Positions 1,051-28,116 of a stretch of DNA of 64,000 nucleotides are shown here, one piece after another. Origin of the DNA: an uncultured delta proteobacterium (lineage in GTDB: Bacteria > Myxococcota_A > Polyangia > Polyangiales > Polyangiaceae). The stretch is from the NCBI GenBank assembly GCA_963839305.1, contig CAWIUL010000011.1, positions 2,249,561 to 2,313,560 on the forward strand, read 5' to 3'. A model generated the notes under the pieces. That model worked only from the letters and a program-made list of their open reading frames with translations, was not told where the DNA came from and ran no database searches. Made by a program: the position numbers and the translations under genes. Position 1 is the first letter of the stretch. Each line of letters begins with the position of its first letter.

Positions 1051-3155
1051 GCGCCCTCTTCGCGTTCTTCATCGCGCTCCTCTTCGCGTGGCCCGCGTTT
1101 GCGGCAGGACACATCGTCGTCCCGCGCGGCGCGCCGCTCGAGCTCAGCCCCATCGTCGGAAACTACGAGGGCGCGTTCGACGTCAAGAACGACTCCGACG
1201 AGCCCCTCTTCGTCTCGCGCATCGCGCCGCGCACGGACACCGACGACGTGCGCCTCCCGCGCCGCGTCTTCGCGCGGTTCGAATCGGGCGCGACGAGCGG
1301 CACGATCCCGCCGCACGGAAGCGGCCGCGTGCGCGTCACGTGGACCCCCGAGCGAGACACGCACGTCCGAGCCTTCTACGGCCACGTGATGATCACGTCG
1401 ACCGACGAGGCCGCCGGAGAGATCGCGGTCGGCATCGCGGTCCACGCCGCGCCGCTCGGCGTCCTCGGCCGTCACCTCCTCTCGTCGATCGTCGCGCTCC
1501 CGCTCCTGGCGGCCGCGCTCCTCGCGCTCTTCGTGGTCGCCGCGGGCGGCGGTCGCACCGGTCGAAGGCCGCGCGTCGCCGCGCTCGTCGCGTCGGTCGC
1601 CGCTGCGCTCCTCGCGTGCGCCGCGTGGGCGATGTTCGACCCCGAGGTCTCGCGCGAGGCCGGCGGCGACGGCATTCAGCTCGTGGAGCGCGTGACGTTC
1701 GTGCGCGCGCTCGGCATCGAGATCTTCCTCGGCATCGACGGCGCGAGCCTTCCGCTCCTCGTCACGTGCGCGCTCGCGGCGCCGTGCGGCGTGCTCGCCT
1801 CGTGGGGACAGCGCAAAAACCCTGCGATTTTCTTTGCACTCTACATGCTCCTCGTCGGCGCGTGCCTCGGCGCGTTCGTCGCGCTCGACGCCGTCTTGTT
1901 CTCGTTCTGCCTCGCGCTCGCGCTCGGCGCCGCGTTCCTCCTCGTCGGTCTCTACGGCCACGGCGAGGCGCGCGTCGCGGCGGGTCGCATGCTCGTCCTC
2001 GCGGGCCTCGGCGTCGTGCTCCTCGCGGTCGCGCTCGGCGCGCTCCACGCCGCGTCCACGCGCACGTTCCTCGCGGACGGCTCGCCGGTGCCGCACGCGT
2101 GGGCGTTCCCGGAGCTCGCGCGCGTCGACTTCGTCTCGTCTCGCGCGCACCTCTTCGGGGCGCCGCTCGTGAAGAGCGCGTTCGTGCTCACGTTCATCGC
2201 GCTCGGACTCGTGGGCGCCGTGTTCCCGTTTCACGCGTGGCTCGCCCCCGTCGTTCGGTGCGCCCCGCCCGCGGCGTCCGCGTTGATCGCGGTGGGCCTC
2301 ACGCGCGTCGCGATGCTCGGGATCTTGCGCGTCGACGTCGCGCTTCTCCCCGAGTCGACGCGATGGGCCGCGCCCGTCCTCGGCGCGCTCGGCGCCGCGG
2401 GAGCGCTCTACGGCGCGCTCGTGGCGATGGGCGACCGCGATCTCGCGTCGATCGCGTCGTTCGGCCTCGTCTCTCTCGGCGGCGCTGCGCTCGTCGGCGT
2501 CGCCGCGAGCACGCCTCAAGGCCTGCTCGGCACGGTCACCGGCCTCGTTACCTCGGGCTGCGCGGTCGCCGCGGCGATGCTCGCGCTCGGCGCCCTCCGC
2601 GAGCGCACCGGCACGCTGGACTTGCGCGAGCTCCGCGGTCTCGGCCTCGAGGCTCCGCTCCTCGCGGGCGCGCTCGGCCTCGCGAGCGCCGCGGTCGGCG
2701 CGTTTCCTGGCACCGGCGGGTTCTGGAGCACATGGCTCGCGGGCGTGGGCGCGATCGTCCGCGAACCCGGCGTCGCGACGGCCGCGCTCGTCTCTGCGGT
2801 CCTCCTCGCGACGTCGCAGGCCATGCCGCTGCTCCGCGTCGTGCGCGGACGCCTGCCGGAGGCGCTCCGCGAGTCTCCCGCGCTCGCGCCCTTCGGCGGA
2901 CGCGTGCCCGATCTCAGGCCTCGCGAGCTCGCCGCGCTCGCGCCGCTCCTCGTCCTGCTCGTCGTGCTCGGCTTCTACCCCGCCGCGCTCACTGCCCGCG
3001 CCGCGAACACGGTCCGCGACTTGAACGAGAGCGTGAGCCCGCCCGGCCCCGATCAGATTTCGCTCGCTAGTCCTCTTCCACGAGCGCACGCAGACGCTCG
3101 ATCTTCTCGTCCCACTGACGAGAAATCCGATCGAGGTACCGTCGCGCTTCGCTGA
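1038..3155 (+). CDS. NuoM/MnhD-like antiporter-module membrane protein with ~150-aa N-terminal non-membrane domain
   Basis: ATG at 1038 (MAKLGALFAFF..) in the frame of ORF 420..3155. Motif GIDGASLPLLVTCALAAPCGVLASW matches the NuoM/NuoL/MnhD signature VDGLSLxxVLLT..xxSW. About 12-14 predicted TM segments follow. The N-terminal ~150 aa is hydrophilic. Confidence 0.55.
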   Translation: MAKLGALFAFFIALLFAWPAFAAGHIVVPRGAPLELSPIVGNYEGAFDVKNDSDEPLFVSRIAPRTDTDDVRLPRRVFARFESGATSGTIPPHGSGRVRVTWTPERDTHVRAFYGHVMITSTDEAAGEIAVGIAVHAAPLGVLGRHLLSSIVALPLLAAALLALFVVAAGGGRTGRRPRVAALVASVAAALLACAAWAMFDPEVSREAGGDGIQLVERVTFVRALGIEIFLGIDGASLPLLVTCALAAPCGVLASWGQRKNPAIFFALYMLLVGACLGAFVALDAVLFSFCLALALGAAFLLVGLYGHGEARVAAGRMLVLAGLGVVLLAVALGALHAASTRTFLADGSPVPHAWAFPELARVDFVSSRAHLFGAPLVKSAFVLTFIALGLVGAVFPFHAWLAPVVRCAPPAASALIAVGLTRVAMLGILRVDVALLPESTRWAAPVLGALGAAGALYGALVAMGDRDLASIASFGLVSLGGAALVGVAASTPQGLLGTVTGLVTSGCAVAAAMLALGALRERTGTLDLRELRGLGLEAPLLAGALGLASAAVGAFPGTGGFWSTWLAGVGAIVREPGVATAALVSAVLLATSQAMPLLRVVRGRLPEALRESPALAPFGGRVPDLRPRELAALAPLLVLLVVLGFYPAALTARAANTVRDLNESVSPPGPDQISLASPLPRAHADARSSRPTDEKSDRGTVALR

Positions 3156-6040: not shown

Positions 6041-7003
6041 TCAATCCTTCAGAGCTTCCGCGCCGCCGATGATCTCCATGAGCTCCTTGGTGATCGCAGC
6101 TTGCCTGGCGCGGTTGTATTGGAGCGTGAGGCGCGCGATGGCGTCCTTCGCGTTGCGCGTCGCGGAGTCCATCGCGGTCATCTGCGCGCCGAAGAAGCCG
6201 GCTTGGCACTCGAGGAGCGCGCGGTAGATCGTGATCTCGAGGTACATCGGCGCGAGGCGGTCGAGGACGAGCGTCTTGTCGGGCTCGTAGATGTACTGGA
6301 CCGTGGTCGCCGCGGCCTCGTCGGCGCTCTTCGAGGACGATTCTTCTCCGAGCGGCAGGAGCCGATCGACGAGCGGCTTCTGCGTGATCGCGCTCTTGAA
6401 CTCGCTGAAGACGACGTACACGACGTCGTCCTGCGCGTTGCGGTAGCGGTCCGTCAGCCAGCGGGCGATGCTGCCCGCGTACTCGAGCGAGAGGTCCTCG
6501 CGCCCGCGGACGAAGTTGTGCACGATCTCGCCGCCGCGGCGCGCGATGTAGTCGCGGCCCTTGCGGCCGATCGTCGCGAACCGAACGTTCTTGCCGGCCG
6601 CGACCTGCTCGCGCCAGAGCGCCTCGGCGAGCTTCGAGATGTTCGTGTTGAACGCGCCGCACAGACCGCGGTCGCTCGTCACGAGGACGATGAGCACGTT
6701 CTTCTCGGGCGTGCGCTTGCGGAGCAGCGGGTGCATGCGCCGCGTGCGCTCGTGCTCGATCTGCTCGGTCGTGAGAGGGCGCGCGCCGTCGACGATGCCC
6801 TCGTCGACCACGGCCTCGTCCGCGAACGCGCGCGCGACGGAGCGGAGCATCTCCGCGTTCTTCACCGCGTAGGGACGCATCGCCGAGATGCGCTGCTGCG
6901 CGCGGTTGAGGCGCGCGCCAGCGACCATCTTCATCGCGCGCGTGATCTTCTGCGTCGATTTGACGCTCGAGATGCGCTTACGAATCGTCTTCAGAGACGG
7001 CAT
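6041..7003 (-). CDS. atpG: F0F1 ATP synthase subunit gamma
   Basis: [32 protein letters not shown].. is a canonical AtpG N-terminus. C-terminus ..[18 protein letters not shown]. 320 aa. Confidence 0.9.
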
Positions 7004-7006
7004 GGG

Positions 7007-8762
<1,756 letters not shown>

Positions 8763-8780
8763 GGCTTTCTTTTCTCAGTC

Positions 8781-9323
8781 TCAGTTCGGGAGCAGGGCGT
8801 GCTTGAGGCCGTCGAGGCGCGTCTTGAGCGAGCTGTCGAGGACGAGGTCGCCGATGCGCAGGACGACGCCGCCGATGAGGGCGGGATCGTGTTTCTTGTC
8901 GAGGACGACGCGTTTGTTCGAGAGCTTCTCGAGGGTCGCGAGGAGCTTTTGGTAGAAGCCTTCGCTCAGCGCGACCGCCGTGGTCACCTCGGCGCGGAGG
9001 ATCCCCTTCTTCGCGTCGTTCATCTCGCGGAGCAGCGTCGCGATCTCGGGAAGGAGTACGAGGCGGCGGCGATCTCCGAGGAGGAGCACCGTGTGCTTCG
9101 CGGTCTTGCCGACCCCGAGCTTCTCGCAGAGCTCGCTCACGATCGCCTTCTTCGACGGGAGCGGCACGAGCGGGTTGTCGACCGAGGCGCGCAGATCCGA
9201 GCTGCCCGTGTAGATGTCGGCGACCTTCGTGATGTCCGCGACGAGCGCGTCGAGGTTCTTCTCGGCCTCGCCGAGCTCGAGGAGAGCGCGCGCGTAGCGA
9301 CGGGAGACGTGCGCGGCGATCAC
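8781..9323 (-). CDS. atpH: F0F1 ATP synthase subunit delta (GTG start overlapping atpF stop)
   Basis: VIAAHVSRRYARALLELG... is a typical OSCP/delta N-terminus. 180 aa. GTGA overlap with the upstream gene. Confidence 0.8.
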   Translation of the reverse strand: MIAAHVSRRYARALLELGEAEKNLDALVADITKVADIYTGSSDLRASVDNPLVPLPSKKAIVSELCEKLGVGKTAKHTVLLLGDRRRLVLLPEIATLLREMNDAKKGILRAEVTTAVALSEGFYQKLLATLEKLSNKRVVLDKKHDPALIGGVVLRIGDLVLDSSLKTRLDGLKHALLPN

Positions 9324-10036
9324 TGTCCACCTCCGACCGGGAGGCCCTTTTCGTAGTCGGACGCGAGCCTCGCGATGAACTCTTCGGCGAGGCGCTCCTG
9401 GTCGGCCGTGCTCACGTTCTTCTTGAGCATGTCTTCGGCTTCCCTCGCGGCCTTCTCGACCGTCTCGCGAACGAGATCGATCTTCGTCTGCTTCTTCTCT
9501 TGCTCGAGGATGAAGTCGACGTCGCGCTTGAGGCGCGCGGCCTTCTCCTCGGCGTTGCGGACGATCGCCTCGGCGTCGCCCTTGCCGGTCGAGACCTGCG
9601 AGGCCTTCGCCTCTTCCGCGTCGCCCTCGACCTTCTCGAGCTTCGACCTGTAACGCTTCGCGCGCTGCCTGGCCTCGTTGAGGATCTTCTGCGCGTTCTC
9701 GATCGCGCCCGCGATCGAGAGCTTGCGGTTCTTGAGCCCCTCGGCCACCGGCTTCTTGCCGAAGCGGTAGTAGATGAACACGAGGAGCGCGAAGTTGAAG
9801 AGCATCGCGCCGTACGGCACGTGCGGGTTGTTCAGGAGCTTCGAGTCCCACCACACGATGGGGCCGGGCGGTCCCTCTTCTTCGGCTTCTGCCGGCTCCT
9901 TGCCCCGCTCTTCGTGAGCGATCGAGAGCGTCGGCGCGGGGACCGGATGGACGTTCTGCGGCCTGTGCGTCTGCGCCAGCGCGAGAGCCGGAACGAGCGC
10001 GATCGTGGCGACGAGGAGGTGACGGAGCTTCATCAC
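9320..10036 (-). CDS. atpF: F0F1 ATP synthase subunit b with cleavable signal peptide and N-terminal extension
   Basis: TM ..AMLFNFALLVFIYYRF.. is followed by a long charged coiled coil (ENAQKILNEARQRAKRY...). Preceded by MMKLRHLLVATIALVPALALA signal-like segment. Confidence 0.75.
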   Translation of the reverse strand: MMKLRHLLVATIALVPALALAQTHRPQNVHPVPAPTLSIAHEERGKEPAEAEEEGPPGPIVWWDSKLLNNPHVPYGAMLFNFALLVFIYYRFGKKPVAEGLKNRKLSIAGAIENAQKILNEARQRAKRYRSKLEKVEGDAEEAKASQVSTGKGDAEAIVRNAEEKAARLKRDVDFILEQEKKQTKIDLVRETVEKAAREAEDMLKKNVSTADQERLAEEFIARLASDYEKGLPVGGGQ

Positions 10037-10485
10037 GCCACCTCTCGGCCGAGCACGCGCTTGGCGAAATCCTTCGCGAGCGCCGTCGTGTGAGGGGCGA
10101 GGTCGCTCCGCGTCGCGGCGACTTCCTTCTGGATCGTCGCGCGCTCTGCGTCGACGCGCTTTTGCGTCTCGTTGCGCACCCTGGTGAGGAGGTCGTTCTC
10201 CTTGCGCAGGCCCTCGGCGCGGAGCTTCTCGCGCTCGGTCGCGCCCTCGGCGCGCGCCTTCGAGACGACCTCGTTGTATTGGGTCATCGCCTCGGCCGAC
10301 TCTTCGTCGATCTTGCGGGCGCGCTTGATCGCGCCCTCGATGCGTTTTTCACGCTCCTCGAAGAGCTTGAGCATCGGGTCGAAGAGGACGGGCTTGAGCA
10401 CGAGCCAGAGCACGATGATGAAGCCCACCTGGACGAGCAGGGTGGCGTCGAAATCGAGGTTCACACCGCCCGCAGCGGAGGACAT
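10033..10485 (-). CDS. F0F1 ATP synthase subunit b' (start uncertain: ATG at 10485 or 10548)
   Basis: TM LLVQVGFIIVLWLVLKPVLFDP then a coiled coil (LKLFEEREKRIEGAIKRARK..). It is a second b-type subunit adjacent to atpF. Confidence 0.7.
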   Translation of the reverse strand: MSSAAGGVNLDFDATLLVQVGFIIVLWLVLKPVLFDPMLKLFEEREKRIEGAIKRARKIDEESAEAMTQYNEVVSKARAEGATEREKLRAEGLRKENDLLTRVRNETQKRVDAERATIQKEVAATRSDLAPHTTALAKDFAKRVLGREVA

Positions 10486-10573
10486 AACGTGGCTGGACGT
10501 CAGCGAAAAAGTCGCAAGCATGGGGGACGCGTCGCGGCCAAGTACCACACCGCGCGTCGACTGGGTAGGGCCG

Positions 10574-11146
10574 TTATTTCCCTTGTGCCAGCTTCTTCAG
10601 CGACATGTTTGCGGCGCGCGACCGAGACGGAAGCACGCTCGGCGGCGCAGGCGGAATTCTGGCTGCAATCCGCGCGCGCGGCGGCGGAGGCAGCGGCGTG
10701 CGCGGCGGGATCATCACACCCGAAGACGTGATGGGCCGCTGGAGCTCGAGCGGAAACTCGGACGACGGCGGCGGCGGGATCGAGCTCGTCCGTGCCTGAT
10801 GGATCGGCGTGCGATCCTCGTCCGTGTCGAACTTCGACGCGAGCGGGCGGCGCATGGGCGCGCTTCGGCGATCTTCGAAGCGGAGCAGCGGCGGCGTGCG
10901 AACGAGCCGGACGCGACCCGTCACGGGATCGGTCGCCGCGAAGAGCATCGGGCAACCGACGCGCGGGAAATCCACGAGCGCGCCTTCCGCGTTCACGTCG
11001 AGCGTCGCCAAGTATTGGGCGCCGACGATCCGCTCGGGCACGCACTCGCCGGTTCGACCCGGGTGAGCGACCGCCCAACGGCACACCCCTTCGGCGTCGA
11101 GCATGAAGACGCCGGACTGCGTGTGCGCTGCGTACACGATCTCCAT
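10574..11146 (-). CDS. hypothetical protein with Pro-rich C-terminal region
   Basis: 190-aa ORF. C-terminus PPPPSSEFPLELQRP..PPRTPLPPPPRARIAARIPPAPPS. No recognizable family. Confidence 0.35.
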   Translation of the reverse strand: MEIVYAAHTQSGVFMLDAEGVCRWAVAHPGRTGECVPERIVGAQYLATLDVNAEGALVDFPRVGCPMLFAATDPVTGRVRLVRTPPLLRFEDRRSAPMRRPLASKFDTDEDRTPIHQARTSSIPPPPSSEFPLELQRPITSSGVMIPPRTPLPPPPRARIAARIPPAPPSVLPSRSRAANMSLKKLAQGK

Positions 11147-11191
11147 CGCGCGCGTGAGAGGTGCAAGCCGCGCGCCGCGCCTCAGGCGCGG

Positions 11192-11488
11192 TCAGCGCTT
11201 GTGTTTTCGGGGGTTTCCGCGCCCTTTGGGGGCGTTCGCCCGGGGTCCCGAAGATCCAGGGTTGGATCTCGCGTTCCCGTAAGGTTCTTGTTTGGCTGTA
11301 CGACTGACGACGAGCTGAGCACCCTCGGGACCCATCGCCGGGCGCACGCTCGCGAAGCCCTCGACCTTCGCGAAGCCGGCGAGATCGCCTTTGTGGCTCT
11401 CCATGTGCGCGCTGAAGCGCGCCCAAAAAGCGCGCGCTTCCTCTTCGGGCATCGGCACGCCGTCGACGACCACCGTGAGGCGCGCCAT
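11192..11488 (-). CDS. small hypothetical protein (98 aa)
   Basis: MARLTVVVDGVPMPEEEARAFWARFSAHMESHKG... in ORF 11192..12079. Basic C-terminus. Confidence 0.3.
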   Translation of the reverse strand: MARLTVVVDGVPMPEEEARAFWARFSAHMESHKGDLAGFAKVEGFASVRPAMGPEGAQLVVSRTAKQEPYGNARSNPGSSGPRANAPKGRGNPRKHKR

Positions 11489-11509
11489 CTTCAGGTGCAC
11501 CGCGCCGAG

Positions 11510-12000
11510 GACCGCGATTCGGCTCGATCTCCGCGACGTACTTCGTCGAGGATCGACGGTTCGCATGGATCTTCGGACGTTGCCGTCCTTTCGATGACGA
11601 TCGTCTCGCGCATCTCGATCGTCGCGCCGAGCTTGTCGATGTACTTCGACGCGCACGCCGAACTGGTTAGCGAGCTCGAGCTTCGAGATCGCTCGACGAG
11701 GTGAAACGGCAGCTTGTGGTGCTCGGCGAACGCGCGGTGCGAGTCGTCGTGTCGACCGAGCAGATACCCGAGTCGAGCACGACGCCGCTCTTCTGGTAGC
11801 GTGCCCCGCGTCGCGAGACGCGCTCGGCCTCGTCGCTGCAGCCCGCGGTCGCGTCGTTCGGATAGAAGTAGAGGACGACGGCTTGACGCGCTTGAGCGTC
11901 GCGCTGTCGGGCTTCGTGTCGGTCCGAGGCGACGATGGAGAACGTCGGGCGCGGCGCGTCGCCGACGGCGATCTGGCGCTCGCCGACGCGGGCTCGGCTC
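11510..12000 (-). pseudogene. bcp: Bcp-type peroxiredoxin (thiol peroxidase) remnant with >=3 frameshifts
   Basis: Frame 1: ..GDAPRPTFSIVASDRHEARQRDAQARQAVVLYFYPNDATAGCSDEAE.. (Bcp active site VLVYFYPKDxTPGCT). Frame 2: ..DDSHRAFAEHHKLPFHLV.. (Bcp ..KFAEKxxLPFPLLSD). Frame 3: ..ELANQFGV.. (Bcp ..VCEQFGVW). Back to frame 2: ..RETIVIER... Confidence 0.45.
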
Positions 12001-12085
12001 GTGCCTCGGGCTGCGAGCTCTCCGCGACGCCGCACGCGTGACGATCGGGACGAGCAGCGAGGAGCTGCCGCATGCGCACAACATG

Positions 12086-15000
12086 TCAGAGAATCCCGAA
12101 CTCCTTGAGGCGCCGGTAGAACGTGCGCCGCGGGATTCCGGTGAGCTCCGCGGCCTTCACGCGGTTCCAGTCGCAGGCAGCGAGCGCGCGCAAGATGCGC
12201 TCCTTCTCCGAGTCTTTGTACTCGGCCTCGTTGCGCGCGGGGCGCACGGCGGAGCGCGACGAGCCCGTCGACGAGATGGAGCGGCTGTCCATCGTCGGCA
12301 GCTGGATGTCGCCTTCGCCGAGCTCGCGCTCTTCGCCCATCAGCCACGCGTTCAAGAGGACGTGCTCGAGCTGACGCACGTTGCCGGGCCACTCGTACGC
12401 GCACATGCGGCGGAGCGCGTCGCGCGCGATCGTCTTTCGCTCGCGGCGATAGCGTGACGAGAACAGCGTGAGGAAGTGATCGATGAGCGGCGGGATGTCC
12501 TCGGTGCGCTCGCGAAGCGGCGGCACGCGCACCTCGACGACGTGCAGGCGGTAGTAGAGGTCCTCGCGAAACGTCCCGTCCTTCACCATTTGCTCGAGAT
12601 CGCGGTTGGTCGCCGCGATGATGCGCACGTCGACGGGCTCTTCGGCGGCGCCGCCGACGGGCCGCACCTTCTTCTCCTGGAGCACGCGGAGGAGGCTCGC
12701 TTGCATCTTGATCGGCATCTCGCCGATCTCGTCGAGCAACAGCGTTCCGCCCTCCGACTCGCGGAGGAGGCCCTTGCGATCGCGATCGGCGCCGGTGAAC
12801 GCGCCGCGCACGTGGCCGAAGAGCTCGCTCTCGAGGAGGTTCGCGGGGATCGCGCCGCAGTTGACGCCCGTGAACGATTTCTTCGCGCGCGCGCTCGCCA
12901 TGTGGATCGCGCGCGCGACGACCTCTTTGCCCGTGCCGCTCTCGCCGGTGATGAGCACGGGGACGTCGGCGTCCTTGATGCGATCGACGAGCGCGTACAC
13001 CTTGCGCATCGCGCCGCTCGTGCCGACGAGGCCCGCGTAGCCGAAGTGGCTCTTGAGGCCCGCGCGCGCGCGGCTCAGATCGCGACGAGCCTCTGCGAGC
13101 TGCTCGGTGCGGCGATCGAGCGTCCCCTCGAGGCGCGCGCGCGCTTGCTCGAGCTCCGCGTTCTTCACGGCGAGCTCCTTCACGAGGCGCGCGTTCTCGA
13201 TCGCGATCGCCGCTTGGTCGGCGAACGCGGCGAGGAGTGGGAGCTCTTGCTCGAAGCGCAGGCCGGGGCGGACGCGCGTCTCGACGTAGAGCGCGCCGAT
13301 GGGGCGACCGAGCGGCGGCGCGCCGCGCACCGGGACGCACGCGATCGACTGGATCGCGAGCTGGTGCACGCTCACGGCCTCGGCGAGGCGCGCGTCTTCG
13401 CGCGCGCGCATCGCGACCACGGGCTCGCCGGTCTCGACGACCTTCTCGGCGACCGAGCGCGAGAAGACCGCGTGCGGGTCGTCGCCCTTCCGATCGCGCG
13501 ACGCGTGCGCTTCGAGCGTACCGTCCTCGTTCTCGAGCAAGACGAAGCCTCGCTCTCCGCCGAGAAGGGCGATCGCGTGATCGGTGACCTTGGCGAGGAG
13601 GCGAGGCAGATCGTGCTCGGTCGCGAGCTCGCGCACGATCTCGAGCACGCGCGCGAGCTTGTCCTCGGGCGGCTTCGCGATCGAGAGGCTCGAGAGCGTC
13701 GGCGACTCGAGCTTCGGAGGGACTCGCACGCTCGGCGCCGTGACGTTCACGGCCGTGCGGAGCGCGGCGCGGCGCGGCTCGTCCCAGAAGACCTCGCGGA
13801 GATCGCGCGGGAGCTTCGACGCGGTCTCTTCGAGCATCGAGACGGCGCCTTCGATGTCGCGCCTCGCTTGGACGCGTAGGCCTTGAGCCCCGAGGACGCG
13901 CGCGCGCGCCTGGAGCGCCCAGACGCCGAGCTCTTGCTGCCCCGCGGACTTCGCGCTCGTGACGGCTTCGTCGAGCGCCGTCTTGGCCTTCTCGTCGTGG
14001 CCCGCGCGCGACTCGATCACGCCGCGGACGAGCAGCGCTAGCGCGCGGTGAGCATCGCCCGCGGCGCCCTCGACGGCGTCGAGATCGGCGAGCGAAGGCG
14101 GCTTGGGCTGCGTCGTGCGCATGAAGAGCGCCTCGAGCCGCGATTCGACCGCGTCGAGCGCGCGCCCCTGCTTTTCGTAGGCGATCGCGCACTCCTCGTA
14201 GAGTCGCGCGGACGACTCGACGTCGCCCGTGCGCGCCGCGAGCTCGGCGCGGCACCCGAGGAGCTGCGCGCCCGCGAAGCTCGACTCCGCGAGCGAGCCC
14301 AGGTTCGCGCGGAGCGCGTCGATCGCGGCGCGCGCGCGCGCGTGCCGGCCGAGGTATAGGTCGAGGTTCACGAGGTTCATGCGCGCCTGCTGGACCGCGA
14401 GCAAGCCGCCCGCGCGCTTTCCGAGATCGACGGTGGCCTCGAGGTGCTCGAGCGCGCGCGCGACGTCGCCCTCTTCGCGCGCGAGGCCCGCGAGGTTCAG
14501 CCGCGTCGCCGCCACGGTGCTCGCGTCCCGCGCGCGCTCGGAGAGCTCGAGCGCCTTCTCGTACGCGCCCTTCGCCTCGGACGAGCGGCCCGCGCGCTGG
14601 TGCACGAGGCCGAGCGATCCGAGCGCGAAGCCCTCGCCGCGCACGTCTGCGTTCTTGCGCGCGATCGTGAGCGCGCGCTCGAGGCTCGCCTGCGCCGCCG
14701 CGTCGTCTCCGAGATACGCCTGCGCGACGCCGATCGTCGCGACGGCCTCGATCGCCGCGCCGACGTCGAGCGCGTCTTCGTCGACGAGCGCCGCGCGCGC
14801 CGCTGCGATCGAGTCCGCGAAGCGGCCCGCGCGAAGGAGCGCTCGACTCATCGCGACGTTCCAGGCGCGCGCCTCCGCCCCCTTCGGTGCGGCGCGCTCG
14901 AGCACGGCGATCGCGAGCGACGGCTCGCCGCGCGCCGTGCGCACGCGAGCCTCGGCGATCGCCGCGCGCACCTTCATTTCACGGGAGGACCCGGTGAAAT

Positions 15001-16453
15001 CTGCGCCCGCGAGCTGCTCCTCGGCTTGCGAGACGCGCCCCAGCTCGATGAGCCTCTCGGCGCGCGCGAGCGCCTGCTCGGGCGTCTCGGCGATCGCCGG
15101 CGCGTCTTCCACCGCCTCGTCGATGTCGCTCTCCGAGACCACGGCGCGACCCGCGAGAGCGCGCACCGCCGCGCGCAGCGCGCCTGGCTTTCTTCCGGAG
15201 CGCTCCGCGAGGTGACGCGCGAGCGCGCGCGGGAGCGAGGGCATCGCGCGGAGCAAGAGATCGTCGGTCGTCGCGGCGTCGAGCGGCGGCACCTCGAACT
15301 TCGTGACGCGCCCGCCCCCGAGCGCCTTCACGGTCGCCTCGCTCGACGCGACGACGAGCCGCGCGCCGCCCTTCGTCGCCTCGCGCACGAGCACGCGCGC
15401 GCCCTCTTCGAGCGCGTCGCCGTCGTCGATCACGATCACGGTCTTCGGCGACGGCTTGCTCGCGACCTCGAGCGCGATCGCGTCGCGCCACGCGAGCTCG
15501 GTGCGCGGCTTCTCCGCGAGCACCACGTGCTTTCCCTCGATGCCGAGCGTCCACGCGACGCGCCGGAGGAGCGTGCTGCGCCCCGAGCCGCGCTCTCCCA
15601 CGACGACGAGCACGTCTCCGGCACCGAGCGCGCGCGCCGCGACCGCGAGCTTGTCCGAGACGCCGTCGATGCCTACGACGGGCCAAGCCTCCGCCTCGAC
15701 CGCGGGCGGAAGCTTCGCCGCGAGGCGGATCGCGCTCGCGATCTCGCCCGTGCTCGGGTAGCGCTTCTGCGGATCGTCGTCCTTGCCGCGCGCGGCGATC
15801 TTCGCGAGCGCCATGCGCGGCTCGTCGGGCAGATCCGATCCGCGCCGCGCGAGCCCTTCGGCGAGCGTCGCGGCGAGCGCGTAGACCTCCGCGCGCACCG
15901 TGAGCGGCTCGCCCGCAAGAAGCTCCGGAGCCGCGTATTTCGGCGTGAGCCCGCGCGCGCGCGTCCCGCCTTCGCGCAGCGGCGCCGCGAGCCCGAGATC
16001 GACGAGCGTCCCGCGATGATCCGCGGAGACGATCACGTTCGCGGGCTTCACGTCGCCGTGAAGAAGCCCCGCGCGATGGAGCGCCGTGAGCTGATCGGCC
16101 GCGTGCGCGAGCGGCTCGAGCCACTCGCGCTCGTCTCCCGTCATGACGCTCTGGTCGAAGATTTCGTCGAGGCTCCTGCCCTCGACGAGCTCGCGCACCA
16201 TGTACCTTCGCCCCGCGTTCTCGTCGCCGAGCGTCCCGAACGCGAGCACGCGCGGCACGCCGAGCCCCTCGAGCCCCGAGAGCGCGACGGCCTCACGCAC
16301 GAGCGCGACGAGCTCGAGCTCGCCCGCGTCCTTCGCGAGCACCTTCAGCGCGCAGCGCGTCCCGAGCACGCGATCGCGCACGGCCCACACTTCGCCTCCG
16401 CCGCCCTGACCGAGACGGTGGAGCGCTTCGTAACGCGGCGGAAGCCCCTTCAC
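12086..16453 (-). CDS. multidomain regulator: Ser/Thr protein kinase + P-loop ATPase + TPR + GAF + sigma-54 interaction (AAA+) + Fis-type HTH
   Basis: GTG at 16453. The kinase domain runs from YEALHRLGQGGGGEVWAV...HGDVKPANV...KYAAPE. A P-loop GERGSGRST follows, then TPR-like repeats. The GAF-like region is ..VTDHAIALLGGERGFVLL... The EBP core has GESGTGKE...GAFTGA...ESELFGH. The C-terminal HTH is ..AAELTGIPRRTFYRRLKEFGIL. Confidence 0.8.
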   Translation of the reverse strand: MKGLPPRYEALHRLGQGGGGEVWAVRDRVLGTRCALKVLAKDAGELELVALVREAVALSGLEGLGVPRVLAFGTLGDENAGRRYMVRELVEGRSLDEIFDQSVMTGDEREWLEPLAHAADQLTALHRAGLLHGDVKPANVIVSADHRGTLVDLGLAAPLREGGTRARGLTPKYAAPELLAGEPLTVRAEVYALAATLAEGLARRGSDLPDEPRMALAKIAARGKDDDPQKRYPSTGEIASAIRLAAKLPPAVEAEAWPVVGIDGVSDKLAVAARALGAGDVLVVVGERGSGRSTLLRRVAWTLGIEGKHVVLAEKPRTELAWRDAIALEVASKPSPKTVIVIDDGDALEEGARVLVREATKGGARLVVASSEATVKALGGGRVTKFEVPPLDAATTDDLLLRAMPSLPRALARHLAERSGRKPGALRAAVRALAGRAVVSESDIDEAVEDAPAIAETPEQALARAERLIELGRVSQAEEQLAGADFTGSSREMKVRAAIAEARVRTARGEPSLAIAVLERAAPKGAEARAWNVAMSRALLRAGRFADSIAAARAALVDEDALDVGAAIEAVATIGVAQAYLGDDAAAQASLERALTIARKNADVRGEGFALGSLGLVHQRAGRSSEAKGAYEKALELSERARDASTVAATRLNLAGLAREEGDVARALEHLEATVDLGKRAGGLLAVQQARMNLVNLDLYLGRHARARAAIDALRANLGSLAESSFAGAQLLGCRAELAARTGDVESSARLYEECAIAYEKQGRALDAVESRLEALFMRTTQPKPPSLADLDAVEGAAGDAHRALALLVRGVIESRAGHDEKAKTALDEAVTSAKSAGQQELGVWALQARARVLGAQGLRVQARRDIEGAVSMLEETASKLPRDLREVFWDEPRRAALRTAVNVTAPSVRVPPKLESPTLSSLSIAKPPEDKLARVLEIVRELATEHDLPRLLAKVTDHAIALLGGERGFVLLENEDGTLEAHASRDRKGDDPHAVFSRSVAEKVVETGEPVVAMRAREDARLAEAVSVHQLAIQSIACVPVRGAPPLGRPIGALYVETRVRPGLRFEQELPLLAAFADQAAIAIENARLVKELAVKNAELEQARARLEGTLDRRTEQLAEARRDLSRARAGLKSHFGYAGLVGTSGAMRKVYALVDRIKDADVPVLITGESGTGKEVVARAIHMASARAKKSFTGVNCGAIPANLLESELFGHVRGAFTGADRDRKGLLRESEGGTLLLDEIGEMPIKMQASLLRVLQEKKVRPVGGAAEEPVDVRIIAATNRDLEQMVKDGTFREDLYYRLHVVEVRVPPLRERTEDIPPLIDHFLTLFSSRYRRERKTIARDALRRMCAYEWPGNVRQLEHVLLNAWLMGEERELGEGDIQLPTMDSRSISSTGSSRSAVRPARNEAEYKDSEKERILRALAACDWNRVKAAELTGIPRRTFYRRLKEFGIL

Positions 16454-16457: not shown

Positions 16458-17363
16458 CTACTTCGGAGTCGACTTCGTGCTCTCGAAGCCGTAGTACGCC
16501 GCGAAGTTGAAGAAGAAGCCGGTGATCGAGAAGCCCGTCTGCAGGCGCATCTCGAGCTGCTTGATCGGCTTGAACCGCAAGCCCAAGATCGGGAGCTCGA
16601 TCCACGGCATGATGTTCGGCACGCTGCCGCTCGGCGAGTCGAACCACATCGGCTCGCGGTGGCCCTTGCCCGCGCCGACCTTGTCCACCGTCGAGTTCTG
16701 GTGCTGGTTCGCGTTGCAGCCGTTCGGTCCCGTCTGCACGCACTGGTAGTACGTCGTGCCGGCCTGGTCCTTGTAGACGTTGCCGCCCGTGTTCGTGTCG
16801 CTGACCCATGTATTATACAAGTCACCGAACACGCCGCCGACGCCGACGGCGAAGCCGAACTCGAAGTCGACCTGACCGGCCTTCGCGATCGGCACCGACC
16901 AGAGCAGGTCGACGGTGAGGTAGACGGCCTTCAGCTCCGAGCTCACGACCGTCGTGTTGCCGACGCCGCTCTTGCCCTTCTCGACGAAGATCGTCGGATC
17001 CATCTGGTAGTTCGTGAAGTTCAGGCCCGGCACGATCGAGAAGTGATCCTTGCGGTAGTCGAGGCTGATCCCGGCCGTGCTCGAGCCGACGAGGTTCGGT
17101 CCCTGGTCGACGAACAGTTGGATGATGAACGCCGGCACGAGCGTGAGCCGGTAGTTCGCGCCGAGGAAGTAGTAGCCGCGCCCCTTCTCTTCGAGGACGT
17201 CGGTGATCTTCTCTTCCGTCGTCGTCGGCGCCGTCGCGTTCGCGTTCGTGTTCGTCGCGCCGGTCGAGACGGTCGTCGTCGCGCCCGTGTCATCCGCGAA
17301 CGCTCGAGGCGCCGCGAGCCCAACCGTCAGAGCCACCAAGCAAGTCAAAGACAGACGTTTCAT
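16458..17363 (-). CDS. secreted / outer-membrane-like protein with signal peptide and Thr-rich linker
   Basis: MKRLSLTCLVALTVGLAAPRAFA signal peptide, then TTTVSTGATNTNANATAPTTTEE. The C-terminus ends in aromatic residues (..FNFAAYYGFESTKSTPK), typical of beta-barrel proteins. Confidence 0.55.
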   Translation of the reverse strand: MKRLSLTCLVALTVGLAAPRAFADDTGATTTVSTGATNTNANATAPTTTEEKITDVLEEKGRGYYFLGANYRLTLVPAFIIQLFVDQGPNLVGSSTAGISLDYRKDHFSIVPGLNFTNYQMDPTIFVEKGKSGVGNTTVVSSELKAVYLTVDLLWSVPIAKAGQVDFEFGFAVGVGGVFGDLYNTWVSDTNTGGNVYKDQAGTTYYQCVQTGPNGCNANQHQNSTVDKVGAGKGHREPMWFDSPSGSVPNIMPWIELPILGLRFKPIKQLEMRLQTGFSITGFFFNFAAYYGFESTKSTPK

Positions 17364-17546: not shown

Positions 17547-18461
17547 ATGGTCCGCAAACGCCTGGCGCGGAACGAGGGCGGGACACGCGGTCTCGTGCTC
17601 TTGGTCCACGGGTTCGGCCAGAACCGGTACGCGTGGCACCTGCCGTCGCGGAGCATGGCGAACTACCTGGCGAAGGCGGGTTACGACGTATTCAACCTGG
17701 ATTTGCGCGGGCACGGACGCTCGCGGCACTTCGGGTCGCGGCGGTCGAAGAGCGTGTGCGACTACGTCGAAGAGGATCTCCCGCGTGCGGTGGAAGAGGT
17801 TCGTGCGATCGCGGGCGATCGGCCCGTGTTCCTCGTGGGGCACTCGCTCGGCGGGCTCGTGAGCTACGCGGCCGCGCCGGGGCTCGCGGGTGCGATCGGC
17901 GGCGTCGCGTCCTTCGGAAGCCCGTACCACTTCGGCCGGGGCTCGACCTCGCTCACCGCGATCGCGACGTTCGTTCGCCTCGTTAACGTGCTGCGACTGA
18001 AGCCGAACCCGCCGGTGCCGCTCCGGCCCGTGGGCCTGACGATGGCCGCGTTCCGCGTGCTCGCCGAGAGCCCGCTCTACCCGATGCCCTGGCGCGGCTG
18101 GCACAAAGGCTCGATGGAGCCCAACGTGCTGAACGAGCATTTGAAGCTCGCGTTCGATCGCGCCGGCCTCGCCGAGCTCGCCGAGATGTTCGAGTGGGCC
18201 GCGCAGAAGCGATTCGGCGGCGACAAAGACTACGGCGAGCGCTTCGAGAAGCTCGACGTCCCGCTCCTCGTCGTCGCGGGGGCGCACGACGATCTCGCGC
18301 CGCCCGAAGGTGTGCAACCTGCCTACGCGCGGAGCCAATCGCGTGACAAAACGTATCGCACGCTGCCACTCGGCCACATCGACTTGTTGGTCGGCCGCGA
18401 AGCGCCGCAGACTACTTGGCCGATGCTCGCCAAATGGATCTCGGGTCGCGTCGAGCGCTGA
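17547..18461 (+). CDS. alpha/beta-fold hydrolase (start possibly upstream, GTG/TTG near 17470-17500)
   Basis: ..LVLLVHGFGQNRYAW...GHSLGG.. nucleophile elbow, ..AGAHDDL.., ..LGHIDLL... Confidence 0.75.
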   Translation: MVRKRLARNEGGTRGLVLLVHGFGQNRYAWHLPSRSMANYLAKAGYDVFNLDLRGHGRSRHFGSRRSKSVCDYVEEDLPRAVEEVRAIAGDRPVFLVGHSLGGLVSYAAAPGLAGAIGGVASFGSPYHFGRGSTSLTAIATFVRLVNVLRLKPNPPVPLRPVGLTMAAFRVLAESPLYPMPWRGWHKGSMEPNVLNEHLKLAFDRAGLAELAEMFEWAAQKRFGGDKDYGERFEKLDVPLLVVAGAHDDLAPPEGVQPAYARSQSRDKTYRTLPLGHIDLLVGREAPQTTWPMLAKWISGRVER

Positions 18462-18530
18462 GATCCCGAACCGCTGACCATTGCCCTTTGAAGAGGGTGA
18501 GCTATGGCTGAATACCTAGGGAGGACTTCT

Positions 18531-20410
18531 TGAACACGCTTAAATTCTCGGTGGCCCTCGTCATCGCGGCGGCCTTTGGTTGCACCACGCAAACGACCGT
18601 CGTCGATCCGCCGACGCCCGTGTCGCCCAATCAGCCCACCGTATTCGCGGGCGCGACGTTCCAGGCGGAGACGCCGCCTGCGCCGATCTCCGGCGGAACG
18701 CTCCTCGCGATCACGCGCCAAGACGGAACCGCCATCGCGCTCGCTTCGGATCCGGACGAGGACGTGGTGAACGTGGTCGCGCTCGGCGCGAATCCGCAGC
18801 TGCTCAACACCGTCGCGCTCCAGCCGGGCGATCAGCCCGGTCGCCTCGTCGTCGACGGTGCGGGTCGCGTGCACGTCGTCCTCCGCGAGGGCGGCGCGAT
18901 CGCGACGCTCGTCCTCGGCCAAAACGGCGCTTCGCTCTTGATGCGTCGATCGGTCTGCAACTCGCCGCGCGGCATCGACTACGACGCGTCGACGGACTCG
19001 ATCTGGGTCGCGTGCGCGACGGGCGAGCTCATGTCGCTCCCGGCGGCCGGCGGTCCCGCGACGATCAGCGTGCAGCTCGACCGCGATCTCCGCGATGTCG
19101 TCGTCGACGGCGACAACTTGTATGTTACACGCTTCCGCTCGGCGCAGGTCCTCACGGTCGACAAGACCGGCGCGGTCCTGAACACGGCGCTTCCGGCGAT
19201 GCCGTCGAGCGTGATGTCCGCGTCCGCTCCCGACGTCGCGTGGCGCGCGGGCAAGCTGCCGAACGGCGGCGTCCGCGTCCTTTATCAAGTGGCGTCCAAC
19301 ACGCCGATCGACGTGGCGCAGCCTCCGGGCGTGAGCTCGTACGGCGGCACGTCACAGAGCACGATCGTCCAAGGCGGCGCGGGCGGCGTCGTCACCGTCG
19401 CGGTCGCCTCGATGGGCGGCAACCAGGGCGCGGTCGCGCTCCACTCGAACCCCGTCGTCGACATGGCGACCTCGCCGCTCGGCGATTTCGAGACCGTGTC
19501 GATCAAGGGCGTCATCGAGACGAGCGGCAACGACGTCCTCGACCCGCAGTTCCAATCGGTGTTCGTCGTCGACGACGGCCTCAGCTCCGGCACGCCGGAC
19601 GAGTTCACCGCGATCGCCGACGCGCGCGGCGCGCAGGTCCCGACGCTCGTGCTTCAGCGTCGCGGCGCAAACCCGGGCCTCATCGTCCTTCGTGCGCCGC
19701 TCAATCAGTCGCTGCAGAGCGCGGCGCTCCTCGGGGTCGTGCAGTTCCACCAGAACAAATCGCACGTCGACACCGGCTTCGACGTGTTCCACATGCCGAC
19801 CGGCGTCGGCATCGCGTGCATGAACTGTCACCCCGAAGGCGGAGACGACAGCCACACGTGGCATTTCTCGCTCGCGAGCGGAGAGCGCGTGCGCCGCACG
19901 CAGTCGCTCCGCGGCGGCGTCGTGACGCCGAGCGCGCCTTATCACTGGGACGGCGACATGGCCGACCTGCAGACGCTCTGCGACGAGGTCTTCACGCACC
20001 GCATGGGCGGCATGGCGATCAGCGCCGCGCAGACGCCCGCGCTCGCGCGCTTCCTCAACTCGATGCCGCGCGTCCCCGTTCGTGCGACGCTCGATCAGAC
20101 GCGCGTCGCGGCAGGCAAGGCGCTCTTCGACGGCGCGGCCGCGTGCGGCACGTGCCACATCGCCGGCGCCGGCACCCGCCCGGACAACCAAGACATCGGC
20201 AAGACCGACTCGCTCGGCGCGACCCCGGCGCTCCAAGTTCCGATGCTCGTCGGCGTCGCGGATCGCGCGCCTTACATGCACGACGGCTGCGCGACCACGC
20301 TGATGGATCGCTTCACGGACCCGAGCTGCGCGGGCTCGAAGCACGGAAACACCGACGCCCTCACCGCGGACGACAAGCAGAACCTCGTCGAGTACCTCGA
20401 GAGCCTGTAG
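18531..20410 (+). CDS. lipoprotein with N-terminal beta-rich domain and C-terminal diheme c-type (cytochrome-c-peroxidase/MauG-like) domain
   Basis: TTG start with AGGGAGGA 6 nt upstream. Lipobox AAFGC. Two CxxCH motifs (CMNCH and CGTCH) about 130 aa apart, as in diheme CCPs. Confidence 0.65.
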
Positions 20411-20455
20411 CTCTTAATCTGCTCCGCGGCTTCGCCGCGATGGTAAAGACGCCGC

Positions 20456-21676
20456 ATGCCAGCGGCGTTCTCGCGCGGAGCACGGCTCGCGGTCATCGTC
20501 GCCGCGCTCGGCTATTTCGTCGACATCTACGACCTGCTCCTCTTCGGCATCGTCCGGAAGACGAGCTTGGAGAGCCTCGGCATCGCCGCGGACGCGCAGA
20601 TCGGTCCGACGCAGCTGCTCCTCAACGTGCAGATGATCGCGCTCCTCATCGGCGGCATCCTCTGGGGGACGCTCGGCGACAAGCGTGGGCGAATCTCGGT
20701 GCTCTTCGGCAGCATCATCCTCTACTCGCTCGCCAACATCGCGAACGGCTTCGTGCACACGGTCCCGCAGTACGCGGCCGCGCGATTCCTCGCGGGGCTC
20801 GGGCTCGCGGGCGAGCTCGGCGGCGGCATCACGCTCGTCAGCGAGTCGCTCGACGAGGAGTGGCGCGGCTACGGCACGACGATCGTCGCGAGCTTCGGCA
20901 TCCTCGGCGCGGTCGTCGGCGTCTTCGTCGCGAAGCTCACCGTCTGGCGCGTCTCGTACTTCATCGGCGGCGGCCTGGGCTTGGCGCTCCTGCTCCTGCG
21001 CGTGGGCGTGCTCGAGTCGGGCTTCTACGAGCGCGTGAAGAAGGACGTGTCGATCGAGCGCGGGAACTTCTTCGCGCTCTTCGCGACGCGCTCGCGCGTC
21101 CGCCGCTACGTCACCGTCATCCTCGTGGGCGTCCCCATCTGGTACGCCGTCGCCATCCTCGTGACGCTCTCGCCCGAGGTCGGCCGCGCGATGGGCCTCA
21201 AGCCCGCGCCGGACGCAGCGTTCGCGATCCTCGTGAACTACGCAGGCCTCGCGCTTGGCGGCTTCGCGAGCGGCCTCTTGAGTCAGCGGCTCAAGAGCCG
21301 AAAGCGCGCGCTGCTCGCGTTCATCCTGATCACGGCGGCGAGCTTGCCGATCTATTTCTTCCTCGGCCGCCACTCGCTCGCGCTCTTCTACGCCGCGAGC
21401 GTCGTGCTCGGATTCGGCACGGGCTACTGGTCGGTGTTCGTGACCGTGGCCGCGGAGCAGTTCGGCACGAACGTGCGCGCGACCGCGACGACCACCGCGC
21501 CGAACTTCGTCCGCGGCTCGGTCGTCCCCGTGACGCTCGCGTTCAACGCGCTGAAGGGCCCGCTCGGCGTCGTAGGCAGCGCCGCGGCCGTCGGCGCGAT
21601 CACGCTCGTCATCGCGCTCCTCGCGCTCCGCTCCCTCCCGGAGACGTACGGAAAGTCGCTCGACTTCGTGGAGTAG
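20456..21676 (+). CDS. MFS transporter
   Basis: 12 predicted TM segments. MFS motifs ..GTLGDKRGR.. (loop 2-3) and ..GLAGELGGG... Confidence 0.85.
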   Translation: MPAAFSRGARLAVIVAALGYFVDIYDLLLFGIVRKTSLESLGIAADAQIGPTQLLLNVQMIALLIGGILWGTLGDKRGRISVLFGSIILYSLANIANGFVHTVPQYAAARFLAGLGLAGELGGGITLVSESLDEEWRGYGTTIVASFGILGAVVGVFVAKLTVWRVSYFIGGGLGLALLLLRVGVLESGFYERVKKDVSIERGNFFALFATRSRVRRYVTVILVGVPIWYAVAILVTLSPEVGRAMGLKPAPDAAFAILVNYAGLALGGFASGLLSQRLKSRKRALLAFILITAASLPIYFFLGRHSLALFYAASVVLGFGTGYWSVFVTVAAEQFGTNVRATATTTAPNFVRGSVVPVTLAFNALKGPLGVVGSAAAVGAITLVIALLALRSLPETYGKSLDFVE

Positions 21677-28113: not shown

Positions 28114-28116
28114 GCC

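Follow-up and report, generated by a model that had tools for sequence, protein, structure and literature searches.

A kinase-bearing, STAND-type sigma-54 activator of Polyangiaceae and its candidate link to an ATP synthase operon

We analysed a 64,000-nucleotide stretch of DNA from an uncultured delta proteobacterium of the Polyangiaceae (GenBank assembly GCA_963839305.1, contig CAWIUL010000011.1, positions 2,249,561 to 2,313,560; hereafter the window), focusing on a gene for a 1455-residue regulator in which a Hanks-type Ser/Thr kinase, a STAND-type P-loop NTPase, a TPR-like sensor, a GAF domain, a sigma-54-interacting AAA+ domain and a Fis-type helix-turn-helix (HTH) follow one another on one chain. 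The explanation that best accounts for the observations, to which we give an even chance, is that this protein is a STAND-switched, kinase-bearing bacterial enhancer-binding protein (EBP) that activates an operon of MEIVY, an orphan gene, and ATP synthase (atp) genes. The complete circuit, in which the regulator would act through a TGGATC enhancer on a sigma-54 promoter driving MEIVY and the genes for the ATP synthase stalk, alpha and gamma subunits, is perhaps a little less probable than that. We hold more tentatively, as a possibility somewhat short of even, that a lineage of Polyangia keeps MEIVY-headed atp stalk, delta, alpha and gamma genes under a sigma-54 promoter with a phased enhancer and a dedicated kinase-STAND-TPR-GAF EBP. 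The features on which the proposal is built are as follows.

12086 to 16453, minus strand: regulator gene (Ser/Thr kinase-STAND-TPR-GAF-sigma-54 AAA+-HTH), GTG start at 16453, stop codon at 12086-12088, 1455 aa
11192 to 11488, minus strand: small100, an orphan open reading frame (ORF) of 98 aa between a redoxin gene and MEIVY, with the enhancer candidate in its 3' end
11253 to 11268: candidate upstream activating sequence (UAS) of 16 bp, the perfect palindrome GATCCA-N4-TGGATC in the 3' end of small100, 76-91 nt upstream of the -24/-12 element
11162 to 11177, minus strand: candidate -24/-12 element CGGCGCGCGGCTTGCA in the small100-MEIVY spacer, ending 15 nt ahead of the MEIVY ATG
10574 to 11146, minus strand: MEIVY, an orphan gene of 190 aa, the first gene past the candidate promoter
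6041 to 10548, minus strand: ATP synthase genes downstream of MEIVY, comprising the five that follow
10033-10548, minus strand: atpF' (ATP-synt_B in Pfam)
9320-10036, minus strand: atpF (ATP-synt_B in Pfam)
about 8781-9326, minus strand: atpH (OSCP in Pfam)
6978-8762, minus strand: atpA (orthologous loci carry ATP-synt_ab in the same order)
6041-7003, minus strand: atpG (orthologous loci carry ATP-synt, gamma, in the same order)

Candidate promoter and enhancer ahead of MEIVY and the atp genes

The surroundings of the regulator gene were compared in 12 genome loci (the window, L001-L007 and L015-L018), whose EBPs share 57-80% identity. All 12 have the same layout, in which a hydrolase gene diverges from a co-directional series consisting of a gene for an outer-membrane barrel, the regulator gene, a spacer, small100, MEIVY and atpF'-atpF-atpH-atpA-atpG; the contig of L007 stops inside the regulator gene, and MEIVY is missing from L017. 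The spacer between the regulator gene and small100 is variable (0.2-6 kb) and mostly ends in an AhpC/TSA redoxin gene. In L017, the barrel was called as two ORFs (7797-8898; 235 and 125 aa) and the redoxin gene is also missing. Because this locus is probably a frameshifted or rearranged assembly, it was left out as evidence either way. The small100 ORF was found in 12/12 genome loci and in most metagenome loci. The MEIVY protein consists of a conserved N-terminal domain of about 95 residues (N-terminus MEIVYAA), a Pro-rich linker and a basic tail, and its 89 homologues are all hypothetical proteins of Polyangiaceae. Neither MEIVY nor small100 matched any Pfam or NCBIfam family at permissive thresholds. 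The families of the outer-membrane protein, the EBP, small100 and MEIVY occupy the same narrow phyletic range.

We defined a sigma-54-type element as GG-N10-GC with at least 9 of 12 consensus positions; of the 11 genome loci with a MEIVY gene, 10 contain one. In addition, we assembled 60 metagenome loci encoding MEIVY homologues (33-94% identity), of which 52 were evaluable, and searched up to 170 nt from the start codon; 38 of the 52 had an element, compared with about 2 expected (background, 2.2e-4 per nt per strand). When the 48 elements, from 63 evaluable loci in all, were pooled, the positions not imposed by the scan fitted the consensus TGGCACG-N4-TTGCW, with C at position 4 in 43/48, C at position 6 in 39/48, G at position 7 in 42/48, T at position 12 in 47/48, T at position 13 in 48/48 and W at position 16 in 45/48. 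A scan of the whole window with this consensus, allowing up to three mismatches, gave 51 matches against 80 expected, that is, no enrichment. Where 60-69 nt separate the element from the start codon, giving a leader of about 50 nt, an AAGGA Shine-Dalgarno sequence is present; in the clade of the window the gap is 15 nt, from which a leader of about 4 nt is predicted, and there is no Shine-Dalgarno sequence. The relation between leader length and the presence of a Shine-Dalgarno sequence is thus internally consistent with a promoter. A first-pass annotation of this DNA had proposed a Thr-rich neighbour of the regulator as the candidate target and a search for sigma-54 promoters near the neighbouring genes. 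That search proved fruitful for MEIVY and not for the Thr-rich gene, which no such element precedes; MEIVY-atp is a much better candidate target.

The GATCCA-N4-TGGATC palindrome is unique in the window. In the -160 to -40 windows of 11 loci, TGGATC/GATCCA half-sites occurred 18 times against 0.62 expected (about 30-fold), and every genome locus has half-sites upstream of the element. Apart from a trivial overlapping pair in L002, the loci of about 20 kb contain no other clusters of two or more half-sites. Half-sites were also found in 48/52 metagenome loci. The distances from the promoter-proximal TGGATC to the element were distributed as follows.

-81 to -83: 11 loci
-90 to -94: 9 loci
-100 to -102: 8 loci
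-112 to -113: 11 loci
-120: 1 locus

The four distance classes (-82, -92, -102 and -113) lie one helical turn apart and so show helical phasing. Furthermore, the reading frame across the motif varies by clade, GCGAGATCCAAC being translated as ARSN and GCGAAGATCCAG as AKIQ, which speaks for selection at the level of DNA and not of protein. Another palindrome within small100, TCGCGAA-N10-TTCGCGA, was dropped, as the conserved peptide FAKVEGFAS is encoded at the same place.

A second exact pair of half-sites, TGGATC-N7-GATCCA, lies at 27926-27944 (plus strand) in the 3' part of a gene for an HlyD-type membrane-fusion protein, 170 nt before a gene for an AcrB-type RND pump (28114-31299), with no sigma-54-like element after it. 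This pair, whose sequence encodes VDRREIQ, could have arisen by chance or be another binding site.

Proposed circuit and the case for another activator

In the circuit that we propose, an autoinhibited monomer would be released, as in other STAND proteins, by the binding of a ligand or partner to the TPR repeats in combination with the nucleotide state of the NTPase. The released regulator would then self-associate and bring its AAA+ domains into a hexamer that remodels sigma-54 RNA polymerase, and the same self-association may juxtapose the kinase domains, allowing phosphorylation of each other or of other substrates. The GAF domain and the coiled-coil linker behind it would form a second, NifA-like layer of control. 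The HTH would bind the TGGATC/GATCCA enhancer at 11253-11268, and the enhancer-bound regulator would activate the sigma-54 promoter at 11177-11162, thereby driving MEIVY-atpF'-atpF-atpH-atpA-atpG about 1 kb downstream of the regulator gene. The step from regulator to enhancer is one that we infer from synteny.

Several points weigh against this proposal. Conserved proximity is the sole tie between the regulator and the TGGATC enhancer, Myxococcota encode dozens of EBPs, and the DNA between the EBP gene and the enhancer varies from 0.5 to 7 kb and contains unrelated genes. Many of the loci are phylogenetically related, so that the counts given above exaggerate how many independent observations there are. 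In L003 the -24 GG is replaced with AG, 14/52 metagenome loci fell under the score threshold, and the predicted start site in the clade of the window leaves a near-leaderless mRNA. Since the enhancer lies inside the coding region of small100, part of its conservation may be coding constraint. As for the protein, its oligomerization, ATPase activity and kinase activity are predictions, and a canonical ATP-hydrolysis switch in the STAND module is doubtful given that the Walker A Lys is replaced with Arg in most members. Finally, the circuit leaves the role of the outer-membrane partner unexplained.

The many EBPs and the variable spacer would also fit a different account, in which the sigma-54 promoter and enhancer before MEIVY-atp are real and are served by another EBP, while the regulator acts on unlinked genes and owes its position to inherited gene order. 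Myxococcota indeed have many EBPs (PMC12316311), and a binding site is not predictable from an HTH sequence alone. However, in the loci whose upstream sequence exceeds 7 kb, EBP and element occurred together in 16, the EBP without the element in 3 and neither in 2, and no locus had the element without the EBP; that is, an EBP gene lies upstream in all 16 element-bearing loci with enough flank. The shared narrow phyletic range of the four families points the same way. Natural negative controls are provided by MEIVY paralogues (about 41% identity) situated outside the regulator/atp context: in L068 and L073, neither small100 nor half-sites nor the element is present, and the EBP is absent as well where the flank allows a judgement. 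A further paralogue of similar identity, L075, is likewise without small100 and half-sites, although a single, different match to the sigma-54 pattern lies 101 nt upstream. Taking these results together, we consider service by another EBP unlikely and retain the neighbouring regulator as the candidate activator of MEIVY-atp.

Were the circuit correct, a core bioenergetic capacity would be placed under a switch combining a eukaryote-like kinase, a STAND module and sigma-54, an arrangement that the literature we searched reports for no bacterium. That search returned no paper on a kinase-EBP fusion, nor on sigma-54 control of atp genes in myxobacteria. Deletion of rpoN has been found lethal only in M. 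xanthus (PMC12316311), and the circuit might bear on the indispensability of sigma-54 in at least one myxobacterium. It would also offer a compact test system, with a 16-bp palindrome, a -24/-12 element 76-91 nt downstream of it and ATP synthase genes as the read-out, in which one could ask whether STAND-driven oligomerization assembles an AAA+ EBP ring, what the fused kinase contributes and whether core energy metabolism in these soil bacteria is under sigma-54 control. Should the link between regulator and promoter fail, the regulator would simply add one ordinary member to a family of multidomain regulators that is catalogued though unstudied.

Architecture and family of the regulator

The regulator consists of the following modules, all encoded on the minus strand.

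15704 to 16453: Hanks-type Ser/Thr kinase domain, residues about 1-250; non-RD (HGD), with DLG for DFG
15104 to 15676: STAND-type P-loop NTPase, residues about 260-450; nSTAND_NTPase5, modelled core
13739 to 15091: TPR-like superhelical sensor, residues about 455-905
13193 to 13618: GAF domain, residues 946-1087; GAF_2 E 1e-12, GAF E 9.5e-12
13031 to 13192: predicted coiled-coil linker of about 50 residues from GAF to AAA+, residues 1088-1141
12299 to 13030: sigma-54 AAA+ domain and lid, residues 1142-1385; Sigma54_activat E 3.7e-71, AAA_lid_14 E 7.8e-20
12089 to 12214: Fis-type HTH, residues 1414-1455; HTH_8 E 1.1e-12

The ORF, its translation and the Pfam matches bear out the multidomain protein of 1455 residues that the first-pass annotation had described at 12086-16453, here placed on the minus strand, and the motifs quoted for it (GQGGGGEVW, HGDVKPANV, KYAAPE and GAFTGA) were all found. 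A domain scan gave the order Pkinase, nSTAND_NTPase5, MalT-like TPR, GAF, Sigma54_activat, AAA_lid_14 and HTH_8, with all matches over the curated cut-off except TPR_MalT, which confirms the order kinase, ATPase, TPR, GAF, sigma-54 AAA+ and Fis HTH that had been read from the letters. In an alignment of the family, the N-termini of the homologues all read MxxLPPRYE and match the GTG start at 16453. The longest mechanical ORF, which extends to 16825, was dropped, as the added part runs, in another frame, into the upstream gene, and nothing corresponds to it in the homologues. No transmembrane segment was found in the protein, which is a single soluble cytoplasmic polypeptide.

The C-terminal part has the features that define an EBP, namely a sigma-54 AAA+ domain with Walker A and B motifs, a GAFTGA loop and a C-terminal Fis HTH. 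GAF_2 matched residues 946-1086. Sigma54_activat (PF00158) at residues 1142-1308 covers positions 1-167 of a 168-position profile and is followed by AAA_lid_14 at 1314-1385 and HTH_8 (PF02954) at 1414-1452. The Walker A (GESGTGKE), Walker B (LLLDEIGE), R-finger region (FREDLYYRL) and sensor II (NVRQLE) motifs of the AAA+ domain and the PRRTFYRRLK sequence of the HTH are invariant in the homologues, and the GAFTGA loop, which contacts sigma-54, is intact at residues 1217-1222 and invariant or almost so across the 30 aligned family members that also supply the residue counts below. Thus, the complete NtrC-type AAA+ domain and Fis HTH noted earlier stand. The AAA+ domain matched NtrC1, FleQ, ZraR and PspF in the PDB (E 1e-50 to 1e-80). 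Because the NCBIfam matches to NifA, NtrC, NorR and others were strong but below threshold, we regard the regulator as a generic EBP rather than the orthologue of a named one.

The first-pass annotation had left room for a failure of the N-terminal region to match kinase profiles; Pkinase matched residues 8-202 (E 2.7e-22) above the gathering score, spanning positions 1-192 of the 263 in the profile. In the predicted structure the whole kinase fold is present, and 228 residues align to PknB. The Gly-rich loop GxGGGGEVW (G15xGxxG20), K37, E54, D134, N139, D152 and A175-P176-E177 (the APE motif) are invariant or at least 90% conserved, and K136, T170 and R231 are likewise invariant or nearly so. 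In contrast to canonical kinases, HGD replaces HRD and DLG replaces DFG in 30/30 homologues, and since the Arg of HRD is replaced with Gly in all of them, the kinase belongs to the non-RD class. Among the Ser/Thr residues of the activation segment, only the structural P+1 Thr170 is conserved, while T164 varies among T, A and S. Non-RD kinases are generally independent of activation-loop phosphorylation, and both non-RD kinases and kinases with DLG include active examples.

Between the kinase and the EBP part lies the STAND module. The nSTAND_NTPase5 profile (PF25199) matched residues 272-372 with 37.9 bits (cut-off, 34), and the modelled core is an alpha/beta domain with five parallel strands. 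Its Walker A motif is GERGSGRST (residues 286-294, window 15574-15600) and its Walker B motif VIVIDD (339-344). The family pattern of the former, GxxGSGR[ST]T, departs from the canonical GxxxxGK[ST]: residue 292 is Arg in the regulator and in 25/30 homologues and Lys in 4/30. The Walker B motif (hhhhDD) is conserved, with D343 invariant. This substitution of Arg for Lys probably entails atypical nucleotide handling and suggests that nucleotide is bound but not normally hydrolysed, or else that the switch is degenerate. The Walker-A ATPase of the first-pass annotation is accordingly present as a P-loop domain, although it is a STAND-type NTPase whose Walker A mostly carries Arg. The nucleotide-oligomerization domain (NOD) of this STAND module is followed on its C-terminal side by a repeat sensor, in which TPR_12 matched residues 574-639 and TPR_MalT residues 541-714, the latter with 35.6 bits, under its cut-off of 45.

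These observations bear on the model put forward in the first-pass annotation, in which autophosphorylation of the kinase, in cis or within an oligomer, gates the sigma-54 AAA+ domain and the Thr-rich neighbour is the target. The catalytic residues of the kinase are invariant, kinase and EBP share one chain in every family member, and the FHA-domain EBPs of myxobacteria already join Ser/Thr phosphorylation to sigma-54 activators. However, the kinase is non-RD (HGD) with no conserved activation-loop Ser/Thr beyond the structural Thr170, and about 700 residues of STAND and TPR, modelled as a compact unit with the kinase, separate it from the GAF domain. Moreover, the neighbour lies upstream of the regulator gene, co-directional with it and abutting it, and so is a partner in the operon and not a divergent target; it has no sigma-54 element ahead of it. 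This model is, in our judgement, improbable as a whole. An autophosphorylation gate is possible as an extra layer, for which the sequence offers no specific support, and the STAND-TPR switch is the more obvious gate because it sits between the kinase and the EBP.

Alternatively, the N-terminal region may be a pseudokinase or nucleotide-sensing scaffold joined to a degenerate STAND P-loop, so that the regulator would be a NifA-like EBP with a large arm for sensing and scaffolding that is catalytically inert. HGD for HRD, DLG for DFG, the partial Pfam match (profile positions 1-192 of 263) and the Arg in the STAND Walker A of 25/30 homologues are what such a protein might display. Set against these are the invariance of the phosphotransfer residues (K37, E54, D134, K136, N139 and D152), the Gly-rich loop and APE over 57-100% identity, the complete modelled fold and the precedents for activity among non-RD and DLG kinases, which make an inert arm less probable still than the autophosphorylation model, and a kinase-bearing, STAND-switched activator remains our preferred reading.

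More than 120 full-length homologues of 1414-1562 aa align to the regulator with 56-81% identity over 98-100% of its length and carry an identical Pfam set, from which it follows that the regulator is one gene, as the first-pass annotation had taken it to be, and not two. That the long ORF is an artefact, either two genes that a sequencing error has fused or an ORF open by chance in GC-rich DNA, has a negligible probability: although the nearby bcp/AhpC-TSA gene, split over three frames, indicates that local frameshifts or assembly errors occur, the GC content at third codon positions (GC3) is 0.87 across the whole ORF, there are no internal stops, and it is effectively refuted by the same length and domain order in over 120 independent homologues, which come from different assemblies.

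We also performed an exhaustive HMMER search of 1.84 billion cluster representatives with residues 1-930 as the query and obtained 168 matches at E <= 1e-30. They include about 30 representatives of 1420-1530 aa that make up the regulator's own family, a group of 1600-1715 aa with about 30-34% identity in which Pfam identifies Pkinase, AAA_16, TPR, GAF, Sigma54_activat and HTH_8, and PknK-like proteins of 1107-1190 aa that lack an output domain. The second group, a Myxococcota family represented by P0303, P0305 and about 25 more proteins, has a larger NTPase region than the regulator. Members are automatically annotated, as 'sigma 54-interacting transcriptional regulator' (in Polyangiaceae, Myxococcales and Myxococcota metagenome-assembled genomes) or as 'PknK' (by the Joint Genome Institute, JGI). 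The kinase-EBP fusion is therefore an established, catalogued and unstudied Myxococcota family, common in Polyangia, and as the regulator is one more member of it, the fusion by itself is not novel. The earlier impression that such a fusion is unusual does not survive the more than 120 homologues and the second family, of about 1700 aa, with the same architecture. Work by Schneiker et al. in 2007 and Perez et al. in 2008 reportedly mentions kinases of So ce56 with sigma-54 activator domains.

Textbook EBPs are gated by receiver, GAF, PAS, V4R or PRD domains. The regulator shares with NifA and the GAF-type EBPs NorR and FhlA the same series of GAF domain, linker, sigma-54 AAA+ domain with GAFTGA and Fis HTH, and its C-terminal 525 residues align end-to-end with NifA of A. 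vinelandii (PDB 9qq6_C, E 1.3e-78), the GAF domains of the two proteins being paired within this match. However, its score against the NifA equivalog TIGR01817 was 362.6 bits (cut-off, 528.85), so it is no NifA orthologue and only its architecture is NifA-like. Unlike NifA, it has 930 additional N-terminal residues (kinase-STAND-TPR) and no nif context, and a search of the 400 nt preceding the candidate promoter in 10 loci found no NifA-type UAS (TGT-N10-ACA) in any of them. Compared with MalT and the STAND activators of the LAL family and the AfsR/SARP-STAND type, whose output is a LuxR- or SARP-type sigma-70 activator, the output of the regulator is a sigma-54 AAA+ EBP; it further differs from MalT, LAL and AfsR in its N-terminal kinase, its mostly Arg-bearing Walker A and its short NOD (about 190 residues).

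The order of the N-terminal two-thirds (Hanks kinase, P-loop NTPase and MalT-like TPR) is that of M. tuberculosis PknK, a likeness drawn from description. JGI names many regulator homologues 'PknK', and the relatives of 1107-1190 aa noted above lack an output. PknK acts on separate transcription factors, whereas in the regulator the transcription factor is fused to the kinase. With the FHA-domain EBPs and Pkn cascades of M. xanthus, the regulator shares the general theme of eukaryote-like kinases wired to sigma-54 EBPs; there, in contrast, kinase and EBP are separate and are joined through an FHA domain that binds phospho-Thr, while the regulator has no FHA domain and carries the kinase on the same chain. 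Background on this theme in the lineage is available (PMC4880591). The regulator may thus be described as a NifA-type activator to which a complete STAND switch and a Hanks kinase have been added, a design common in Polyangia and uncharacterised in the searched literature.

Outer-membrane partner and flanking genes

Three features lie on the upstream side of the regulator gene.

16458 to 17363, minus strand: partner gene, encoding a signal peptide, a Thr/Asn-rich linker and a predicted outer-membrane beta-barrel with a disulfide-bearing loop
17407 to 17419, minus strand: conserved 13-mer GTTAGTGTAGCAT, a sigma-70-type -10-like box about 45 nt upstream of the partner gene
17547 to 18461, plus strand: alpha/beta-hydrolase gene, identified from its translation, the true divergent neighbour of the partner-regulator operon

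The first-pass annotation had called the Thr-rich neighbour at 16458-17363 divergent and a candidate target. Its TAG stop lies 4 nt ahead of the regulator GTG, on the same strand and directly upstream, and because it is co-directional, upstream and abutting, the gene is an operon partner and not a divergent target. It adjoins the EBP gene in 12/12 genome loci, and the gap between the two is 0-60 nt in orthologous loci. We found 102 partner homologues, all annotated as 'hypothetical' and many on contigs carrying EBP homologues, and no Pfam or NCBIfam match for the partner even at permissive thresholds. The protein has two invariant Cys residues and a C-terminal GFSxTGFFF...YGF motif (GFFFNFAAYYGF); the remotest homologues end in YGL, YGF or FGFGG. 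Its AlphaFold2 model is an antiparallel barrel with a predicted local distance difference test (pLDDT) score of 81.5, and the top Foldseek matches are the transmembrane domain of OmpA, OmpX, NspA and Ail (E 3e-5 to 2e-3; TM-score relative to target, 0.6-0.74). The signal peptide, the antiparallel barrel and the aromatic C-terminal motif resembling a beta-signal are those of small outer-membrane barrels. In comparison with the OmpA and OmpX barrels, identity is at most about 12%, the strands are longer, and there are a large two-Cys loop and an N-terminal Thr/Asn-rich linker. The partner is thus predicted to be an OmpA/OmpX-like outer-membrane beta-barrel.

The 13-mer GTTAGTGTAGCAT is shared by the window, L001 (about 6960-6972), L002 (about 6964-6976) and L003 (about 6948-6960), while the surrounding intergenic DNA has diverged, and it is probably the -10 region of the promoter of the partner-regulator operon. 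A simple sigma-70 consensus scan gave no canonical hexamer pair upstream of the partner gene, and sigma-70 and terminator scans were uninformative around the operon. Likewise, a consensus scan found no canonical sigma-54 element upstream of it; a 'TGGCAC' in this region was rejected, having the wrong spacing to any GC and not being conserved in L001 and L003.

Within the window, rpoN was not found. The atp cluster comprises the genes for b', b, delta, alpha and gamma only, with no atpD, atpC, a or c genes after them. As beta, epsilon, a and c are absent from the cluster, the remaining ATP synthase genes must lie elsewhere. Past atpG lie Proton_antipo_M genes of the Nuo/Mrp type (window 3-3155, plus strand), as in L003, L015 and L017. 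The bcp/AhpC-TSA peroxiredoxin gene at 11490-12084 (minus strand), in which VVLYFYPxDxTxGC is still recognisable, is split over three frames in the window and intact in orthologous loci (e.g. L001 14573-15166), so that the window copy is either a pseudogene or the product of local assembly errors.

On the other side of the operon, the position of the divergent hydrolase gave Abhydrolase_1 and Hydrolase_4 matches in all fetched loci. Past it lie a gene for a protein of about 626 aa with a C-terminal region resembling di-haem cytochrome c peroxidase (18530-20410, plus strand) and a gene for an MFS transporter (20447-21676, plus strand), a pair that is kept in L001, L002 and L015.

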